Shown here: positions 1 through 28,258 of the stretch, piece by piece | How positions within the stretch are numbered: position 1 is the stretch's first letter | How the letters are laid out: each line of letters opens with the position of its first letter | The notes under the pieces: model-generated | What the model saw: the letters and a program-made list of their open reading frames with translations, nothing else | Database searches by the model: none | Told to the model about the DNA's origin: nothing | Position numbers and translations under genes: made by a program | Source of the DNA: a virus | Length of the DNA stretch: 28,912 nucleotides | Direction: 5' to 3' (one strand) | UHGV virus genome: UHGV-1359478

Positions 1-193
1 AATTGATAAGCAATGCTTTTTTATAATGCCAACTTAGTATAAAAAAGCTGAACGACAAACAGAAAACATTGTAAATATCAATATGTTATAAAAGATTTAG
101 TCTAAATAATAGACTACATAATACTACAAAACACAACATATCCAGTCACTATGAATCAACCACTTAGATGGTATTAGTGACCTGTAACAGAGC
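1..193. other. attP: lambda-type attP region: P' arm (1-33), core (34-48), P arm with arm-type Int sites (49-~193)
   Basis: Reverse complement of 1-50 reads CAGCTTTTTTATACTAAGTTGGCATTATAAAAAAGCATTGCTTATCAATT, matching my memory of lambda attP core plus P' arm. Arm-type Int-site-like motifs CAGTCACTAT (143-152) and CAGGTCACTAATA (rc of 172-184). AT-rich. Confidence 0.75.
34..48. other. 15-bp att common core (GCTTTTTTATACTAA on the minus strand)
   Basis: Exact 15/15 match to the lambda core sequence as I remember it; flanked by an 11-bp inverted copy at 15-25. Confidence 0.75.
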
Positions 194-194
194 A

Positions 195-235
195 TTAGCG
201 CAAGGTGATTTTTTGTCTTCTTGCGCTAATTTTTT
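195..235 (+). terminator. Rho-independent terminator, tI/sib-like (would terminate int-direction transcripts coming through att)
   Basis: 10-bp perfect inverted repeat TTAGCGCAAG (195-204) / CTTGCGCTAA (220-229) followed by TTTTTT (230-235). Position relative to att matches lambda sib/tI. Confidence 0.5.
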
Positions 236-348
236 GTCAATGCACTGGGTTAGTTGAATTTACAACCATGCTCAGTATCTCGATAAGCGCAGGTAGATGA
301 TGCAGTGGTGGGCTGATTACATCGATGGTCGTGCAGGAGTGTAAGCCA

Positions 349-1435: not shown

Positions 1436-1711
1436 TCACGACGCCGATGACAGTAACATCGTCCAGGGCTNNNNNNNNNNNNNNNNNNNNNNNNNNNNNN
1501 NNNNNNNNNNNNNNNNNNNNNNNNNNNNNNNNNNNNNNNNNNNNNNNNNNNNNNNNNNNNNTTGGCTACCCTGCTTTGGCTTCAGGGAGATATCCAGTAC
1601 AACGTAACCACCAGATCGCTCGAAGACGAGCGTATTTGGACCGACATTGCAGATCGAGTTAACCGTTAATCGCTGTTCCGTGTAGTCCGTCGCCGGTGAT
1701 GGAAAGCCCAT
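1436..1711 (-). CDS. Hypothetical protein, interrupted by the assembly gap (true length unknown)
   Basis: ATG at 1711..1709 overlaps the stop of the upstream gene (TAATG); GGGGAGGG Shine-Dalgarno 7 nt upstream. The ORF runs through the N run at 1471-1561. Confidence 0.35.
   Translation of the reverse strand: MGFPSPATDYTEQRLTVNSICNVGPNTLVFERSGGYVVLDISLKPKQGSQXXXXXXXXXXXXXXXXXXXXXXXXXXXXXXXPWTMLLSSAS
1471..1561. other. Assembly gap (91 N)
   Basis: Run of n characters in the sequence. Confidence 0.99.
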
Positions 1712-1950
1712 TACAGAACCCTCCCCATGTTGGCCATCATCCACAGGCGGTTTTCGCTGTGCTCTGCCGTTTTGTCGACGAAATAAGACTGCTCACGTGC
1801 GATCCAGGCGTTAGCCTCCACCTCGGAAAAGTGGATGCCGCGCCGGCGCAGCGCTGACACAAAATCCTTTGTGTGCAGGTACTGGTATCCTTTGGGGTTA
1901 CGCAATACCGACTCGCGGAATGCCTGATTGATGTCTGACTGTCGAAGCAT
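1711..1950 (-). CDS. Hypothetical small protein (~79 aa), function unknown
   Basis: ORF MLRQSDINQAFRESVLRNPKGYQYLHTKDFVSALRRRGIHF... between the two fiber genes. Start is either ATG at 1950 or GTG at 1971. Confidence 0.5.
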   Translation of the reverse strand: MLRQSDINQAFRESVLRNPKGYQYLHTKDFVSALRRRGIHFSEVEANAWIAREQSYFVDKTAEHSENRLWMMANMGRVL

Positions 1951-2338: not shown

Positions 2339-5224
2339 TTATGCTGCAGAGTAATATTTATCTCCGAATATGAGATTGGCAATCTTCCTTGCCGCGACTT
2401 TCAGCGTGTAGTCGAAAGTTACGGTGTACCCGTTATCGTTCATGTGGTTGTAGTTCCCAACCGGGACGTTATATACCGACGAGTAGCCGCCCACCTCTAC
2501 GCCATACTTAAAGAACGACTTTTCACAATCGGCGAGGAACGCGCCTTTTTGACGTGCGACGACCCTTTGCATATTATTCACCATTTCGAACCGCACATCC
2601 CCCTGCACCTTAACACCGCTGCCGGACCAGTCTTTTGTTACAAAGGAAACTGACGGTGCAGGGTAAAGAATATCCTCAGCGATGGACTGCAGGTTAACGT
2701 GCCGGATCGCTGTCGAGTAGCTTCCACTTGCCGGGATTGCCTCCTGGACAGTTATGGTATTCCGGTCAGAGGAAATGGCTGTGATAGTGTAGTTGCCGGC
2801 GTTGTCTCCGCTTTCTACGCGCAGAGTATGCCCTGGCTTCAGAATATCGCCGCCATAATTCGGGTTAGCAAAGTTACTTTGCGTGATAGTGTTAGCGACT
2901 GCGTCAAAGACATAATTACTTGTTACATTATATGTCCTAACTGGCCAGAACAGTGGGTTTCCGCCGGGGATTGTGGGATACGTTTGGGACATTTCTACGT
3001 TATGGTGCGGCGTAGTACAGATGATCGGTATCGCCCCCCGTGCCAGGCACAGGTCAACCAGCTCCTCTAGCGTCCGTTTCTGCCCCGGGAAAGTGAGTCC
3101 CATGTTGAAGTTGCCAACAGGTGCATCATTCATGCCGCCAACAATCAAAACAAAGTCAGAGGTTGAATAAGGCGAATTAGCTAACTGGGCAGCGAACTGC
3201 TGGAATGCCTGGGTCGGTATGCACTGGTTATCATCGATGATGTCGAACTCGCCATACTGCTTAAGCTCTTCCTTCAAGGCGTTGACGAACAGCGTGTTCG
3301 GAGCATAAGGAGCACCCGCCGCTCCGCCGCCAGTGGAACCAGCCCCAACACCCACAGAAGGCCCAATGGACGTACAAATTATCTGGCGCTTTGTGACGGT
3401 CTTTACCCCCGCGGACCAAGTTATAGCACCGAATGGCGACTGGTCTGAAGATACCCCGGTGCCCACGAGTTTATCCGCCAGAGCAGCATAAGGGTCTGTC
3501 AGCGCCCCCTTGAGGGTCGTAACGTCTTTTGAGAGGGTCTGTATATCTGTGGTTGGATCACCGGCATACAACAGCTTAAAGTTATTCTGCGGAGAGCCAC
3601 GGTATTGCACAGTGGCTGGCATTGCCGCCCGCAGTTCTCCACCAGTTAGCGCAGTATTCGCCCCTTTGAATAAGTTACGCGTGACTGTGTTACCGTACAT
3701 GTCGGTGATGACAAGAGTCATAGCACCTGTATTTGCAGCAACTGGCTCAAAAGTAAGCTGAGTTCCATCTCCAAGTAACCCGGGAATTGTTAATGCTACT
3801 GAGTTAGGACTGGTAGCATCACTGGTAACAGTTGCCTTTGAATAACCATTAAGTACACGACTTCTGTCAGCCGGGTAGGTCAGCATCCGAAAATCTGCTG
3901 ATGAAAAATTAAATTTGATTAAATACGTGTAGCCCGCTACCAAATCTCCCGCAGCGACGTTGGTCCCGTTATTTTGCTTAATCTGCCTCGCCGTACCACC
4001 ATTAACGGAAAGAGTTGGCGTGCGGGTTATATTAGTGGCGCTTGGCGTAAAAAGAAAGACACGATCAGACGCAACAATTCCAGGGATTGCAGATGCGGTA
4101 CCGGAATAGGCATCTCCAGTATTAGCAACGCCAGACAATAACGCTACGCTATTTAATTCAAGCGTGGAAATTCTTGACGCAAGTTCAGCAGCTACTGGGC
4201 CGGATGCCACAAGGACAAAATTGTTAGCAGTCCCAGTGCGGAATTCCATCAGTGCGGGCTGATTGAGAAGCAACTCATTCCCAACTAAAGCTGCATTATT
4301 TTGTTTCTGTATTGCCCGAGTAACCGAGTTCCCCCTGGCATCTGTCACGGTAACGCTAACAGCCGCCGTATTCAAAATAGGAGACAGGAAATAAATCAAA
4401 CTGCCATCCACTAATAATCCGGGGATAGTGATAGCAATGGTATTAGCCGCACCGCTACTCACAGCTGTAGCAGACTGGTAACCCATTGGCATTGCGGATG
4501 GCATTTTCCGTCCAGTAGGCTGCAGCGTTCCTGAGGTGTTAATAACCTCAATCGCAAGAGTTGCGTCGTCAGCGCTTCGATAATACGCGGTTGATCCGAT
4601 GGGGATATTTCCAGCGTCTGCATCAGCCTGCGCAGCCGCCAGCGTAGGGAATTCGCGTATGGTATTAGTTATAGATCCCTGTCCGGGGAACTCAGCAACC
4701 TCTTGTGCTACGCCTGAGTTATTTTTGTAATAACGGAAAGCAAGGACATTTCCTGTCCCCTGGGGAACGCGGAAGTATTGCCCGCTCGTCGTCGCTGCAA
4801 GTCCAGCCGCCGTATCAGCAAAGGTTGATTTATTGTCACCAAACTCCGACGCGCTAAGTGCATATCCCTGCGCCTCTTCCGCTGAATCAGATGCCTGTTT
4901 TGCAAAATCAGCGATCACATTCAGCGTGTCAGCGGTCATCATGTTGGCAACCATATCATTGGCCGCCCACGCTCGCGCCAGCGTCCCTTCCTGTGCGCGT
5001 TCAATCGTGAAGATGTCTCCAGCCTTGGCTGTCACGTTCACGATCTCAACCTGTGAGCCAGTGGCGGCATCGGTGAGAGTGAGCTTAAAGTAACTCTCGC
5101 CTGCCACAGCATCAGGGAACTCGGCACCAGTTCCAGCGCTAACGATCAGCGACGTGTCGGTTGCGCTGATAGCAGAAGCCAGCGTGCTTTCTGCGTTGTT
5201 TGTAGCCAAAAGGGTTAGTGCCAT
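2339..5224 (-). CDS. Tail fiber protein 1 (961 aa): shared N-terminal anchor, three internal tandem repeats, C-terminal domain with a GxND motif (possible SGNH-type esterase)
   Basis: Long ORF; likely start is ATG at 5224 with a GGAGGA Shine-Dalgarno (the track ORF starts 7 codons earlier at a non-ATG). N-terminus homologous to fiber 2. Repeated ~90-aa units containing IPGLL.DG...GN.VTR. C-terminal LIVGGMNDA motif. Confidence 0.8.
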   Translation of the reverse strand: MALTLLATNNAESTLASAISATDTSLIVSAGTGAEFPDAVAGESYFKLTLTDAATGSQVEIVNVTAKAGDIFTIERAQEGTLARAWAANDMVANMMTADTLNVIADFAKQASDSAEEAQGYALSASEFGDNKSTFADTAAGLAATTSGQYFRVPQGTGNVLAFRYYKNNSGVAQEVAEFPGQGSITNTIREFPTLAAAQADADAGNIPIGSTAYYRSADDATLAIEVINTSGTLQPTGRKMPSAMPMGYQSATAVSSGAANTIAITIPGLLVDGSLIYFLSPILNTAAVSVTVTDARGNSVTRAIQKQNNAALVGNELLLNQPALMEFRTGTANNFVLVASGPVAAELASRISTLELNSVALLSGVANTGDAYSGTASAIPGIVASDRVFLFTPSATNITRTPTLSVNGGTARQIKQNNGTNVAAGDLVAGYTYLIKFNFSSADFRMLTYPADRSRVLNGYSKATVTSDATSPNSVALTIPGLLGDGTQLTFEPVAANTGAMTLVITDMYGNTVTRNLFKGANTALTGGELRAAMPATVQYRGSPQNNFKLLYAGDPTTDIQTLSKDVTTLKGALTDPYAALADKLVGTGVSSDQSPFGAITWSAGVKTVTKRQIICTSIGPSVGVGAGSTGGGAAGAPYAPNTLFVNALKEELKQYGEFDIIDDNQCIPTQAFQQFAAQLANSPYSTSDFVLIVGGMNDAPVGNFNMGLTFPGQKRTLEELVDLCLARGAIPIICTTPHHNVEMSQTYPTIPGGNPLFWPVRTYNVTSNYVFDAVANTITQSNFANPNYGGDILKPGHTLRVESGDNAGNYTITAISSDRNTITVQEAIPASGSYSTAIRHVNLQSIAEDILYPAPSVSFVTKDWSGSGVKVQGDVRFEMVNNMQRVVARQKGAFLADCEKSFFKYGVEVGGYSSVYNVPVGNYNHMNDNGYTVTFDYTLKVAARKIANLIFGDKYYSAA

Positions 5225-5246
5225 GTATCCTCCGGGATTAGGCAAT

Positions 5247-5271
5247 AAAAAAACCGCAAGCGCGGCCTTTT
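5247..5271. terminator. Short GC hairpin flanked by A7 and T4 (weak bidirectional terminator candidate)
   Basis: AAAAAAA-CCGC-AAGC-GCGG-CC-TTTT. On the minus strand the stem is followed by T7. The stem is only 4 bp, so this is weak. Confidence 0.3.
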
Positions 5272-5273
5272 AA

Positions 5274-5552
5274 ATGGTGAATATTATGAATAATGCTTCT
5301 ATTGCTATTTTAAAAATACTTTTAGGAACTCTATCTACTTTATTAATACTCCTTTCGTTCGCCTTGCTTATTATTTTATTTGGATTTCTTTTTCAGCAAG
5401 GAATGCCGCCAATAGATATGATAAAAATGTCATCCATTTTGTTTTTATCAATAGTTGTGCTGTATATAATTTGTCAGAGCGTTAAATCACATCTGTATAT
5501 AACAATAGATAATCGAGATAAAAACCTAATCAAATATCTCAACCGTGACTGA
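5274..5552 (+). CDS. Moron: small hydrophobic (two predicted TM helices) protein encoded antisense to the late operon in an AT-rich island
   Basis: 92-codon open frame in a strongly AT-rich 300-bp segment, where random ORFs of this length are unlikely. Product MNNASIAILKILLGTLSTLLILLSFALLIILFGFLF... is highly hydrophobic. No minus-strand ORF longer than 14 codons in this interval. Opposite strand to all neighbours. Confidence 0.5.
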   Translation: MVNIMNNASIAILKILLGTLSTLLILLSFALLIILFGFLFQQGMPPIDMIKMSSILFLSIVVLYIICQSVKSHLYITIDNRDKNLIKYLNRD

Positions 5553-6230
5553 CTGGTAAAACGGCATGTGCAGCAGGCCGCTATCCATGGCCTGCTTGAA
5601 AAAAATGGCGAACTCGAAATCCTCAGTGATCACAAAGGCCGTGTCCTTCTGGTTGTACTTCCTGGAGTTATAGGCCGATGCATTGTAGATAGCGCTCCGC
5701 GTGAACATGCGGCGCCCTTTATAGATGGAAATCACGATACCGCCATCCACAAACTGGATCGAGATACTCCATCGCTGGTCGTTGAGAATGTCGGTGCCAT
5801 TCACTCCCAAAAGGAACCGCAGAATACGCCGCTTTATCCATGGGATAGAGAAATAGAAGCCGTCACCTTTGTAAAAATTCCAGGTCATGATCCGCTTAAA
5901 AAGGTCATCAGAGACAACAACCTGGTTTGACTGGTCAATCACCCGGTACTCATTGAATGCCAGCTGGTTAAATTCGAAGGTGTTATATGGGCCTATCTCC
6001 TGCTGATCGCTGCTGGAAATCACCGGCGGCAAAACGCCATAGATGCCATGGGCAATCCACCGGAGCTGATCTCCGGTGTTGTAGTCACCGATGAAAATCG
6101 GCAGGTTGGCATTAACCATCCAGTCATAAATGCCCTGCGCCATCGAGTTATACGCAGTAAAAAACGCCCGCAGATTTTCATCGTCGTTGTATTGCGTATA
6201 CATATACGACCGGATGATATCGTCCAGCAT
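5526..6230 (-). CDS. Baseplate / tail-fiber attachment protein (hypothetical)
   Basis: 234-aa ORF between a baseplate-wedge-like gene and the fiber; function inferred from gene order only. Confidence 0.5.
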   Translation of the reverse strand: MLDDIIRSYMYTQYNDDENLRAFFTAYNSMAQGIYDWMVNANLPIFIGDYNTGDQLRWIAHGIYGVLPPVISSSDQQEIGPYNTFEFNQLAFNEYRVIDQSNQVVVSDDLFKRIMTWNFYKGDGFYFSIPWIKRRILRFLLGVNGTDILNDQRWSISIQFVDGGIVISIYKGRRMFTRSAIYNASAYNSRKYNQKDTAFVITEDFEFAIFFKQAMDSGLLHMPFYQSVTVEIFD

Positions 6231-25322: not shown

Positions 25323-25790
25323 TTACTTCAGGCACTGCGTGGTGATGTATTCCTGCAGGGCTCTCAGGGCTGTTTGGTCGCTGAGGATTCCGGACCGGAT
25401 ACCGAGAACGTTTCGTCCAGCAACTGCAGAGAGTTCGACGGTGGCATCATTGCCCATGCCGGAGGCGCTGGAGGTTTTGGCTGAGGCTGGCACAGGGCAT
25501 TTTCCTTTGACGAGCACCCGACCACCATTATCAAGCTTGCGCCGAAGAGCATCATTTTCAGCTTTCGCATCAGCTAACTCCTTCGTGTATTTAGCATCGA
25601 GTACATCAGCAGCACGCTGGCGTTGCTGCATGTCAGTAATGGTGGCGGTCGCCTGCTTCAGCTCACTGACTTTTTTATCTCGCTGCTCTTTGTAGGCGAT
25701 GGCGTTATCACGGTAATGATTAACAGCCCATGACAGGCAGACGATGATGCAGATAACCAGAGCGGAGATAATCGCGGTTACTCTGCTCAT
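25323..25790 (-). CDS. Rz: Spanin inner-membrane subunit Rz
   Basis: 155-aa ORF with N-terminal TM segment and coiled coil; high similarity to lambda Rz from memory; overlaps the R stop. Confidence 0.85.
25364..25570 (-). CDS. Rz1: Spanin outer-membrane lipoprotein Rz1, embedded in the +1 frame of Rz
   Basis: Lipobox-like MVVGC followed by a Pro-rich stretch [11 protein letters not shown]; lies wholly inside Rz. Confidence 0.7.
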
Positions 25791-26263
25791 ACCTCAATCT
25801 CTCTGACCGTTCCGCCAGCTTCTTTGAATTTTGCAATCAGGCTGTCAGCCTTATGCTCGAACTGACCATAACCAGCCCCCGGCAGTGAAGCCCAGATATT
25901 GCTGCAACGGTCGATAGCCTGACGGATATCACCGCGATCAATCATCGGTAAAGCGCCACGCTCTTTAATCTGCTGCAATGCCACAGCGTCCTGGCTTTTG
26001 GGAGAGAAGTCTTTCAGGCCAAGCTGCTTACGATAGGCATCCCACCAACGGGAAAGAAGCTGGTAGCGTCCGGCGGCTGTTGATTTGAGTTTGGGGTTTA
26101 GCGTGACAAGTTTGCGAGGGTGATCGGAGTAATCAGTGAATAGCTCTCCGCCAACAATGACGTCATAACCATGATTTCTGGTTTTCTGCCGTCCGTTATC
26201 AGTTCCCTCCGACCACGCCAGCATATCGAGGAACGCCTTACGTTGATTATTGATTTCCACCAT
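25787..26263 (-). CDS. R: Endolysin (lambda R-type lytic transglycosylase)
   Basis: 158-aa product [51 protein letters not shown]... nearly identical to lambda R as I remember it. Confidence 0.9.
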
Positions 26264-26570
26264 CTTCTATTCCGGCTTTTTTAGCAGCGAAGCGTTTGAT
26301 AAGCGAACCAATCGAGTCAGTACCGATGTAGCCGATAAACACGCTCGTTATATAAGCGAGATTGCTACTTAGTCCGGCGAAGTCGAGAAGGTCACGAATG
26401 AACCAGGCGATAATGGCGCACATCGTTGCGTCGATTACTGTTTTTGTAAACGCACCGCCATTATATCTGCCGCGAAGGTACGCCATTGCAAACGCAAGGA
26501 TTGCCCCGATGCCTTGTTCCTTTGCCGCGAGAATGGCGGCTAACAGGTCATGTTTTTCTGGCATCTTCAT
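26247..26570 (-). CDS. S: Holin/antiholin (lambda S-type) with dual-start MKM motif
   Basis: 107-aa product [39 protein letters not shown]... nearly identical to lambda S as I remember it; overlaps R start. Confidence 0.9.
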
Positions 26571-26690
26571 GTCTTACCCCCAATAAGGGGATTTGCTCTA
26601 TTTAATTAGGAATAAGGTCGATTACTGATAGAACAAATCCAGGCTACTGTGTTTAGTAATCAGATTTGTTCGTGATCGATATGCACGGGC

Positions 26691-26725
26691 AAAACGGCAG
26701 GATGTTGTTAGCGCGACCTCCTGCC
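26691..26725 (-). promoter_or_regulatory. GC-rich hairpin followed by GTTTTG in the late leader (attenuator/terminator candidate)
   Basis: Minus strand GGCAGGA-16 nt loop-TCCTGCC then GTTTTGCCC, ~130 nt upstream of S. Confidence 0.3.
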
Positions 26726-27020
26726 ACCCGCTTTCACGAAGATCATGTGTAGAAGGCCGCAGCGTAACTATCACTGATGAATTCAGGATAGCCAGTGGCT
26801 ACGGCTCAGTTTGGGTTGTGGCGGCCGGAATCGAACCGGCTTCCATCGGTGCGCTGCCGATTGCAGTACGCGCGGCGGTCAGCTACATGACTAGTATTTT
26901 CACTGTCGCCTATCTGCTAGCTCGCCATTGAGCTTCACCACAACGATAAGAGCACTGCGCGGCACCTTTCACCAATTCCGCGAGGTCTGCTGGTTCAATG
27001 CTCTTACCTGTTGTGCAAAC

Positions 27021-27058
27021 AAAAAAAGCCACCGTTGCAACTTAAGAGTCACTAACGG
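27021..27058 (-). terminator. Promoter-proximal terminator candidate (T7 tract after a weak stem) in the Q-S intergenic region
   Basis: Minus strand CCGTT...AACGG stem then TGGC-TTTTTTT. The stem is weak and the loop long, so this is tentative. Confidence 0.25.
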
Positions 27059-27072
27059 CAGCTTATGCGAAT

Positions 27073-27101
27073 AGTGTTGCTCATTTGCTCAATGATGTCA
27101 A
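27073..27101 (-). promoter_or_regulatory. Candidate late promoter (pR'-like) immediately downstream of Q
   Basis: Consensus -35 TTGACA at 27096-27101 (minus strand) directly after the Q stop; the -10 17 nt downstream (AACACT) is poor. Confidence 0.25.
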
Positions 27102-27107
27102 CACGTT

Positions 27108-27596
27108 CTATGCTACATGTTTAATTTTCTCTACACGTTTCCGATTTTTAAACGCACTATCCAGAACCGGGTAAATCATAAACAACGAGGCGTTAAGGAT
27201 TTCGTCAACTTCCCGTCGACAGGTTGCGAGCGATGGTTTTTGAATGCGCCCACCGCCACGGCATAACATCTTGCGAGGTCTTGCGACGCAATGATAGTAA
27301 GATGCAATGGCGTGCTTGGAAGAGCCATGAGCGTAGTAGCTGAGGAGGATACCAAAGGCTTTCTTGTCAATGCACATGACGGAATCGACGACCTGAGAAA
27401 TCAACATTCCATCATCATCATTACACATTGGCCTTGTCATAACTCTTCCCGGCTCTACGCTCTCCATGAACTTCGCTATTACGCTGCTCATGCGCTTTTC
27501 CAGACGACCTGAATAAACCCATGCGCCCCACAGTTCAAGCCAGCCATTCAGCCACTCATGCTGTTCTTTGGTGAGGTTTAGTTCTCTTATGCCCAC
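27108..27596 (-). CDS. Q: Late-gene antiterminator Q, QuuD/phage 21/82-like type (not lambda Q type)
   Basis: 162-aa ORF between ninI and the late leader. Motifs [24 protein letters not shown] resemble the QuuD/Q21 family as I remember it. Overlaps the ninI end. Confidence 0.65.
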
Positions 27597-28258
27597 GCGC
27601 CTTCTCCCTGTACCTGAATCAATGTGAGGTTTCCGCAGAACACTGCGCCGGTATCGATATACATCTGGTTGGCAAATTTGAGTGGTTTCACTGCTGGCGT
27701 ATGACCAAAGATGAACGTGTCCGCGCCTTTGATTTCTTTCACGATCCCGTCTTGTGAGTTGCCGATTCGTTCGCGGTTCCAGATTACCTGCTGATGATCA
27801 ACTGGCTTTCCAAACTCGTATTCATCACAAGGATAATCGGCGTGGCAAATGACATATTTTTTACCTTTGCTCACCAGTTCGATGATTAACGGAAGTTCTT
27901 CTGCTTTATGGGAAAGAGCTTTAGCCAGAATTTCTTTGTCGTAATCGAGATTAAAGAACCAGCCACCGCCATTAAGCAGCCAGTGATTGACGTTTCCACG
28001 CTCTGATAAGCCATCAATCATCATGTGTTCATGGTTTCCACGTACAGCTCTGAACCAGGGGAATGTGATTAATTCCAGGCATTCGACGTTCTCTGTACCG
28101 CGATCGACCAAATCGCCCACCGAGATAAGCAGGTCTTTTTTGTTGTCGAATCCAATCGTATCCAGTTTGTTCATCAGGTTCGTGTAGCATCCGTGCAGAT
28201 CGCCAACTACCCAAATATTTCGGTATTTGCTGCCATCAATTCTTTCGTAGATATTCAT
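27587..28258 (-). CDS. ninI: Ser/Thr protein phosphatase (lambda NinI / lambda-PPase homologue)
   Basis: 223-aa product with metallophosphatase motifs GDLHG, GDLVDRG, GNHE; near-identical to lambda phosphatase as I remember it. Confidence 0.9.

Follow-up and report, generated by a model that had tools for sequence, protein, structure and literature searches.

A low-GC antisense gene beside the tail-fibre gene of a contractile-tailed lambdoid phage lineage encodes a small predicted inner-membrane protein with a possible role in superinfection exclusion

Introduction

The short list of inner-membrane exclusion proteins comprises SieA of phage P22, gp15 of HK97 and Imm of T4, and to our knowledge none of their mechanisms is fully understood. 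Imm resides in the inner membrane, is small (~83 amino acids, aa) and keeps contractile-tailed phages from injecting their DNA. SieA is a prophage-expressed inner-membrane protein that acts at DNA delivery, independently of tailspike specificity (PMC10883804), and gp15 is a moron-encoded inner-membrane exclusion protein from the HK97 tail operon, which blocks genome entry and not receptors (PMC3594210). Llp of T5 and Cor of phi80/N15 (the latter discussed in PMC3594210), encoded by accessory exclusion genes beside receptor-binding or tail-fibre genes, are in contrast receptor-blocking lipoproteins. Here we describe a gene of the virus genome UHGV-1359478 (28,912 nucleotides, nt; this whole stretch of DNA is referred to as the window), which encodes a small protein with two predicted transmembrane (TM) helices and lies antisense to the late operon, in a low-GC slot that is bordered by the last gene of the baseplate region and by the gene for the tail fibre.

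An initial annotation, made by a model from the letters alone, had judged its composition, orientation and location to fit a horizontally acquired moron, with lom and bor of lambda for comparison. In position and orientation the gene matches sieA of P22. The P22 order is gene 16, sieA (antisense, tail-to-tail, with its own promoter), orf59a and mnt, arc and ant, a terminator and the tailspike gene, and that of the window is a 234-aa late gene, the two-TM gene (antisense, tail-to-tail), a terminator and the fibre gene. Like SieA, the window product is a (predicted) membrane protein, but SieA has 162-164 aa, three predicted TM helices and a cytoplasmic FxRYPxEAxxFNK motif, whereas the window protein has 88 aa, two TM helices and a conserved K..D.R pattern. 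Alignment with P22 SieA gave an hhalign probability of 0.3%, and the FxRYPxEAxxFNK motif is absent from the family alignment. The phages also differ, the present one having a contractile tail and P22 a short tail with ejection proteins. Mutations that let phages escape SieA affect gp16/gp20, which are injected virion proteins.

The likeness to HK97 gp15 consists in a small inner-membrane protein, encoded by a low-GC insert in a lambdoid tail operon, with a terminator before the next late gene (in HK97 this terminator comes after gene 15, at a distance of 12 nt from the tape-measure gene that follows; PMC3594210). However, gp15, a YebO-like protein, has 62 aa and one hydrophobic segment, and its gene stands in sense orientation between the chaperone and tape-measure genes. 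Homology to gp15/YebO received an hhalign probability of 0.08%, with no such Pfam match. T4 Imm differs in that it belongs to a virulent phage and is expressed early in infection, not from a prophage moron, and none of 15 family members matched Pfam Imm_superinfect at E up to 1. In contrast to Llp and Cor, the window protein is not a lipoprotein and has no tie to a fibre type, although some of the alternative genes of the same slot encode lipobox-bearing products.

Results

A small gene in a low-GC gap of the late operon

The late operon runs leftward on the minus strand, as does every sizeable gene of the window except the open reading frame (ORF) at 5274..5552 (+). The gap that contains this ORF, 5225-5525 (301-304 nt), is the sole large break, all other late-gene spacings being at most 72 nt or overlaps, so that the initial description of an interruption in an otherwise gapless operon holds. 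In 150-nt windows the GC content falls to 0.28-0.34 over 5200-5550, against ~0.50-0.58 in the flanks, and in 200-nt windows only five stretches of the 28.9 kb, the gap segment among them, have less than 40% GC. The low-GC cargo itself occupies 5267..5525 (no strand assigned), and is bounded by a hairpin that belongs to the phage backbone and by the stop codon with which the 234-aa gene ends. Its GC content of 0.28-0.31, compared with a window mean of 0.53, bears out the much lower GC reported initially, and homology to sister prophages ends at each of its borders.

The ORF has 92 codons and is the only sizeable one in the gap. An equally long stop-free run, in any of the six frames, was found in 70 of 20000 mononucleotide shuffles of the 286-nt segment. 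The ORF positions confirm that it is opposite to the surrounding genes and converges on the 234-aa gene, whose 3' end it overlaps by 27 nt on the opposite strand. The frame was thus correctly recognised at first, but its start at ATG 5274 was not, because homologue alignments begin at residue 5 of the 92-aa reading. The true start is probably ATG 5286, which gives a coding sequence at 5286..5552 (+), with the stop codon at 5550-5552 and a product of 88 aa; besides the alignment, this assignment uses the allele starts and the selection analysis given below. A Shine-Dalgarno-like GGTGA, read from the sequence at 5276..5280 (+), lies 5 nt 5' of ATG 5286, and relatives carry AAGGAG or GGTGA at an equal distance from their ATG. 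A holin-style dual start, for which several alleles have upstream Met/GTG codons, was considered and rejected, as the distance from the Shine-Dalgarno sequence speaks for the conserved ATG. In Klebsiella quasipneumoniae, NCBI annotation likewise gives a product of 88 aa (WP_420054454.1).

At codon 25 of the 88-aa protein (window 5358-5360) the window allele encodes Phe (TTC), and the five remaining window-type alleles encode Cys (TGC). This change is the sole difference between the window allele and the commonest E. coli allele.

An Enterobacterales family under purifying selection

A word-index homology search with the single sequence recovered only its own cluster. Exhaustive phmmer gave seven distant homologues, with 35-45% identity and 70-143 aa (most of 95-98 aa), and a profile search extended the family to at least 106 clusters. 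All clusters with a named source are from Enterobacterales (Salmonella, Klebsiella, Enterobacter, Citrobacter, Kluyvera, Kosakonia, Scandinavium and Izhakiella), and none of the 106 has a Pfam domain or an informative name. Family members span 82-105 aa, and homologues with 26-51% identity share motifs and the start position.

The initial annotation had named, as the outcome that would speak against it, a conserved non-coding spacer with a disrupted ORF in relatives. Instead, all 25 distinct alleles from the collected loci are intact, with the ATG at one aligned position, and their ratios of non-synonymous to synonymous substitution rates (dN/dS, Nei-Gojobori) have a median of 0.29 and a maximum of 0.58. 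The same alignment read in the two other frames gives 0.62 and 1.75. Allele L026 is separated from the window allele by 11 synonymous and 7 non-synonymous changes, whereas neutrality would predict ~4 synonymous ones (p=4.6e-4), and within the window's clade R77 is preserved despite a CGA/AGG double change. The ORF is a real gene under purifying selection.

Scans of the protein and 15 family members against Pfam, PHROGs, NCBIfam and PADLOC returned scattered sub-threshold matches to unrelated membrane families, including TcpE, DUF2207_C, Phage_holin_2 and AmaP. These were not accepted as identities and were treated as compositional noise, being below the cut-offs and scattered. PADLOC-DB gave no match for the 15 members even at E up to 1. 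When two family members were compared by tblastn with 50,697 genomes of isolated phages, no match appeared, a result that says little about presence in cultured phages because the low-complexity filter of BLAST may mask the hydrophobic helices. The protein family is undescribed; the element itself would count among the classical morons, with a likely function in a known category.

Predicted membrane topology

Kyte-Doolittle hydropathy gives two hydrophobic segments, at residues ~15-40 and 52-68 (92-aa numbering). AlphaFold2, run with a small alignment, models a helical hairpin with helices at 3-38 and 42-87 (88-aa numbering) and a predicted local distance difference test score (pLDDT) of 78.8. 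The hydrophobic two-TM protein of the initial annotation is thus recovered by both methods. Predicted TM helix 1 comprises residues ~7-36 (5304..5393, +), according to hydropathy and to the AlphaFold2 helix 3-38. It is followed by the loop QQGMPPIDMIK (5394..5426, +), in which the alignment shows a near-invariant G39 and P41, and by predicted TM helix 2, residues ~48-66 (5427..5483, +), which is supported by hydropathy, alignment and AlphaFold2. The conserved positions of the family alignment are K10, L13, G39, P41, F53, C65, K67, D75 and R77, the last four, with R77 invariant, being assigned to the tail after helix 2.

From the charge distribution, both termini would be cytoplasmic, including this tail, and the loop of ~11 residues (10-12) would be periplasmic. 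The protein has neither a signal peptide nor a lipobox; with its two predicted TM helices it would be integral to the membrane and expose hardly any mass to the periplasm.

A polymorphic slot in one prophage lineage

The left border of the slot is the 234-aa late gene (5526..6230, -; phrog_8212, function unknown), which lies directly downstream of the Baseplate_J gene and in the contexts examined always adjoins a Baseplate_J/E1_FCCH gene (472 aa). The right border is the tail-fibre gene (2339..5224, -; 961 aa), with its ATG at 5224 and a GGAGG ribosome-binding site at 5229-5233. The fibre was assigned from RefSeq names, a conserved N-terminal anchor and an SGNH/GDSL esterase-like region, for which the Lipase_GDSL_2 match is sub-threshold (21.9 bits vs a cut-off of 32.9). 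The order Baseplate_J, 234-aa gene, family member (antisense) and fibre gene is found in Salmonella, Enterobacter, Kosakonia, Klebsiella, E. coli and a metagenomic contig. All contexts examined are prophages of one lineage, and the family was never met in a chromosomal context. The exception to the order is one Salmonella group with a different baseplate and fibre module, where the gene follows the fibre-assembly gene, antisense and again just inside the late-strand terminator.

To survey the slot, we retrieved 92 loci with a relative of the 234-aa gene and measured how far from it the fibre gene lies. Sixteen of the 92 have an empty slot of 5-164 nt, among them L011, L016-L018, L079, L083, L085, L087-L089, L092, L093, L095, L096 and L098, and 25 hold the two-TM family in it; in some related phages the empty slot measures 76-164 nt. 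Elsewhere it contains unrelated low-GC genes (0.31-0.40) in either orientation, the gap with other cargo being 343-1067 nt, and in 12 loci more than 2 kb of extra genes. Among E. coli genomes with both flanks, 19 of 43 carry window-type cargo and the rest something else, and the slot of phage RothC holds a different cargo. The P0065 allele is found beside three different fibres, and the window allele beside SGNH/GDSL-type or 'TolB family' fibres. The slot itself is polymorphic and recombination-prone. The moron proposed initially therefore stands as extra low-GC DNA in a polymorphic slot with a genuine gene, but without a terminator of its own, since no plus-strand terminator follows the ORF, whose frame runs into the 234-aa gene.

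Other occupants of the slot are low-GC cargo genes of at least six unrelated families (L002, L003, L007, L027, L053, L055, L057 and L061-L063, at ~4700-5600 of each locus). Judged by eye only, several of these unrelated products begin with lipoboxes (such as LSSGC, LVGC, LSGC, IAGC) or signal peptides; the alternative cargo proteins have no Pfam or PHROGs match. One of them, of 230 aa, was considered as LprI/DUF1311-like, for which Pfam gave no confirmation. The alternative cargo thus offers candidate envelope-acting accessory genes that could be tested side by side.

Two further loci contain regulatory genes. In L075 (4706-7169) the slot also carries an Arc-like repressor gene, on the same strand as the two-TM gene, and Bro-N and ORF6N antirepressor-like genes, and in Salmonella L100 (4399-6294) the two-TM gene comes after a gene for an Arc-like protein, with a P22_AR_N antirepressor gene nearby. 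These immI-like modules parallel the sieA-mnt-arc-ant region of P22.

A late-strand hairpin of the phage backbone

Between the cargo and the fibre gene we identified a terminator-like hairpin on the minus strand at 5246..5271, AAAAGGCCGC-GCUU-GCGGUUUUUU followed by a U tract, 13 nt upstream of the ribosome-binding site of the tail-fibre gene. In plus-strand view it appears as CCGC-aagc-GCGG at 5254-5265, with an A7 tract before and T4 after, and together with these tracts it spans 5247-5271. The fold has an energy of -14.6 kcal/mol (z -1.7). A GC-rich hairpin with T6-8 is present at the matching place in most related loci, including the empty slots L083, L085 and L087-L089, and is absent in the clades L008/L058, L054/L091, L009/L086, L010/L090 and L012/L094. 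Because it stands at the same place even in empty slots, the hairpin is a backbone element of the phage on the late strand and not moron cargo, and the cargo is inserted between the 234-aa gene and the hairpin. The initial annotation had correctly seen a hairpin with A/T tracts before the ORF, but its late-strand orientation and its retention in empty slots speak against a link with the plus-strand gene. The initial reading was largely right on the nature of the segment and wrong on the role of the hairpin.

RNAalifold of 16 hairpin regions gave a poor consensus, as stems and loops vary in length, and the evidence for the hairpin is therefore that each sequence folds individually and that the position is fixed. 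The terminator scan did not list it, probably because pairing of the A and T tracts lengthens the stem, which leaves no T tail. An Rfam scan of 4900-5900 gave only a sub-threshold csRNA match at 5245-5339 (-), with 26.1 bits against a gathering score of 57 (E=0.56); it stops at the late-strand hairpin and most likely reflects the terminator and the AT-rich sequence.

Promoter region, compact alleles and proposed lysogenic expression

Most relatives have an extended -10 element (TGnTAnnAT) immediately beyond the hairpin, at 30-37 nt before the ATG, and a good Shine-Dalgarno sequence follows it. The variants are TGaTATAAT, TGgTAAAAT, TGaTACAAT, TGcTAAGAT and TGaTAGAAT, with the element at -30 to -37 in L065, L069, L072, L074, L078, L104, L105 and L112, and with TACAAT or TATACT in its place in L110 and L103. 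The promoter stretch is missing in the window clade, in the 51%-identical L048 clade and in the L058/L099 clade, and the distance from hairpin to ATG is 20 nt in the window, compared with 50-60 nt in most relatives. Eight alleles have this compact architecture (six window-type, L048 and L049), all of them intact. We regard the compact form as an old one that still functions, and not as recent debris, because two diverged alleles share the layout and both appear to be still under selection.

The window also encodes a Q-like antiterminator (27108..27596, -; phrog_943, E=2.6e-89), which would explain how late transcription could pass an internal terminator: Q-modified polymerase presumably reads through the hairpin in lytic growth. 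In the lysogen, by contrast, the hairpin would stop transcripts of sense-oriented cargo before the fibre gene. Being antisense to a Q-antiterminated late operon, the two-TM gene would be expressible only with late transcription off, that is, in the lysogen.

Discussion

A tentative role in superinfection exclusion

These results suggest a moron-type accessory gene in a temperate phage that has a contractile tail and lambdoid regulation and is related to the Klebsiella phages RothC/D and Chronis; the slot of this gene is flanked by the last gene of the baseplate region and by the tail-fibre gene. In the mechanism that we favour, the 88-aa protein would insert in the inner membrane as a helical hairpin, with the G-x-P loop in the periplasm and the conserved K67, D75 and R77 on the cytoplasmic face. 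The gene would be expressed in the lysogen, and late transcription would run over it during lytic growth. At the inner membrane the protein may interfere with the channel or ejection proteins of incoming related phages, and the block would then fall at genome entry, as with P22 SieA and HK97 gp15, and not at an outer receptor by masking. A block of genome entry fits better than receptor masking because the protein is predicted to be integral, with almost no periplasmic mass, and shows no fibre-type linkage. Superinfection exclusion at the genome-entry step is, by analogy, the likeliest of the jobs considered for this protein, which we put forward tentatively and with some doubt. We infer its topology, its lysogenic expression and its exclusion function alike, and the argument for exclusion is positional and architectural, because there is no homology to a characterised protein and the fold search was uninformative.

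Several observations weigh against this proposal. There is no detectable homology to SieA, to gp15 or to any Pfam, PADLOC or NCBIfam family, exclusion families included, and analogy of position is weak evidence of function. Foldseek of the AlphaFold2 model against viral structures found nothing at E <= 0.001, a null that is uninformative because a helical hairpin carries too little information. The window allele lacks the extended -10 of its relatives, a consensus scan found no plus-strand promoter upstream, and the best hit of a relaxed scan (TAGCCA-17-TATCCT, 8/12) overlaps the ribosome-binding site of the fibre gene. In the window clade, moreover, the native basic/acidic C-terminal tail (...K.R.EDVxI) and its stop codon are replaced by the 27-nt read-through into the 234-aa gene. 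Finally, PGAP calls no gene in the 301-nt gap of the E. coli RefSeq records examined (L001 4075-4377, L005, L006).

Alternative explanations

The last of these points are also what one would expect of a decaying remnant in the window clade, which would have lost its promoter and 3' end and no longer be expressed, while the family may be functional elsewhere. The short hairpin-to-ATG distance, with no extended -10, the replacement of the C-terminal 10-18 residues and the missing annotation in E. coli all agree with such decay. However, the promoter-less clade still shows the bias towards synonymous changes relative to L026 and has kept the invariant Arg through a double codon change, the 51%-identical L048 has the same compact layout with an intact gene, which points to an old and maintained form, and no compact allele is disrupted. 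We therefore regard decay as quite unlikely. A more radical view, that the frame is a chance one in a T-rich non-coding spacer or in the 3' untranslated region of the 234-aa gene, draws on the ease with which hydrophobic ORFs arise from T-rich DNA, on the appearance of the segment, seen from the late strand, as a 3' untranslated region ending at a terminator, and on the weak minus-strand csRNA match. It is effectively refuted by homologues that at 26-51% identity share motifs and start position and by a dN/dS well below 1 solely in the ORF frame, besides the rarity of equally long frames among the shuffles.

If the gene is functional, its product could act otherwise than by exclusion. It might bind and modulate a host protein, be it a transporter, a sensor kinase or an enzyme of envelope biogenesis, to the benefit of the lysogen in fitness or serotype, as modelled by AcrZ, MgtS, SgrT or the O-antigen polymerase inhibitor Iap of phage D3. 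The charged conserved cytoplasmic residues and the short conserved periplasmic loop would suit protein-protein contact within the membrane, other cargo of the slot resembles envelope proteins, and surface-polysaccharide chemistry is a regional theme, since O-acetyltransferase genes lie near the slots of relatives and SGNH esterase domains occur in the fibres. Yet the family has no homology to any such regulator, is confined to prophages of the lineage and is not tied by allele to a particular fibre type, which makes a role in host physiology unlikely. A membrane-active killer or gate, such as an abortive-infection effector, a toxin or a holin/antiholin-like depolarising protein, would share the layout of two TM helices with both ends predicted cytoplasmic and a charged C-terminal tail, and 3 of 15 members have weak Phage_holin_2 matches (best E=0.018) and one a weak Saf_2TM match. 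Those matches are far under the curated cut-offs and scattered over unrelated membrane families, and PADLOC gave none. In addition, the phage already has a holin, endolysin and Rz cassette, the antisense orientation is wrong for a lysis gene, and no antitoxin or sensor partner is consistently adjacent in the contexts examined, so that we consider this activity improbable.

Significance

Beyond the single gene, exclusion at genome entry would lend itself to a wider proposal, which we offer as speculation and would not expect to hold in full. The family of 82-105 aa might be an unrecognised class of inner-membrane exclusion proteins directed against contractile-tailed temperate phages, the slot might be a lineage-wide exchange point for envelope-acting exclusion genes (two-TM proteins, lipoproteins, periplasmic proteins and immI modules), and the combination of antisense orientation with a Q-read terminator might serve as a lysogeny switch. 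If the protein does block phage entry, it would add a non-homologous example to SieA, gp15 and Imm, and it would be relevant to predicting host range in phage therapy, as prophages of the lineage reside in clinical E. coli, Klebsiella, Salmonella and Enterobacter genomes. The lineage of the RothC/D and Chronis relatives is reported to be frequent in the human gut and to occur in Enterobacteriaceae only (bioRxiv 10.1101/2024.12.02.626457). Standard annotation had overlooked the gene in the E. coli RefSeq genomes examined.

Other features of the phage genome

The phage combines lambda-type regulation with a contractile-tail module, as indicated by the lambdoid late-control and lysis block at window 25323-27596 (-). 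Besides the Q-like antiterminator gene, this block comprises the genes for a holin (26247..26570, -; phrog_126), an endolysin (25787..26263, -) and an Rz-like spanin (25323..25790, -); a NinI-like phosphatase gene (27587..28258, -) lies upstream of the Q-like gene.

Window 1-300 corresponds to a lambda/434-type attP region and the adjacent terminator region. Its identity is 88% to phage 434, in which the matching part bears the annotations 'O core of attP' and 'terminator', and 98% to two uncultured lambdoid records. Both attP arms presumably flank the core here, which would mean that the window derives from a viral contig or a phage genome that is not integrated, and not from the end of an integrated prophage. 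At 1471-1561, a run of 91 N (masked or an assembly gap) falls inside an ORF at 1436..1744 (-) with a UmuD-like PHROG N-terminus.

A second fibre-like gene (349-1380, -) encodes 343 aa, with a glycine-rich C-terminal part and matches to tail-fibre and fibre-assembly PHROGs. Its N-terminal anchor, MALKLLANNNAKSVLAAG..., resembles in type the anchor found in the main fibre, MALTLLATNNAESTLASA..., and the phage may carry two fibres, alternative or simultaneous. Acyl_transf_3 (O-acetyltransferase-type) genes stand beside fibre genes in L082 (6849-7871), L104 (381-1433), L106 (2282-3427) and L111 (2100-3140), and the fibre of the window, like many others, has an SGNH/GDSL esterase-like region, which hints at acetylation of a polysaccharide receptor by the prophage, opposed by fibre-borne deacetylation (compare PMC13123978).

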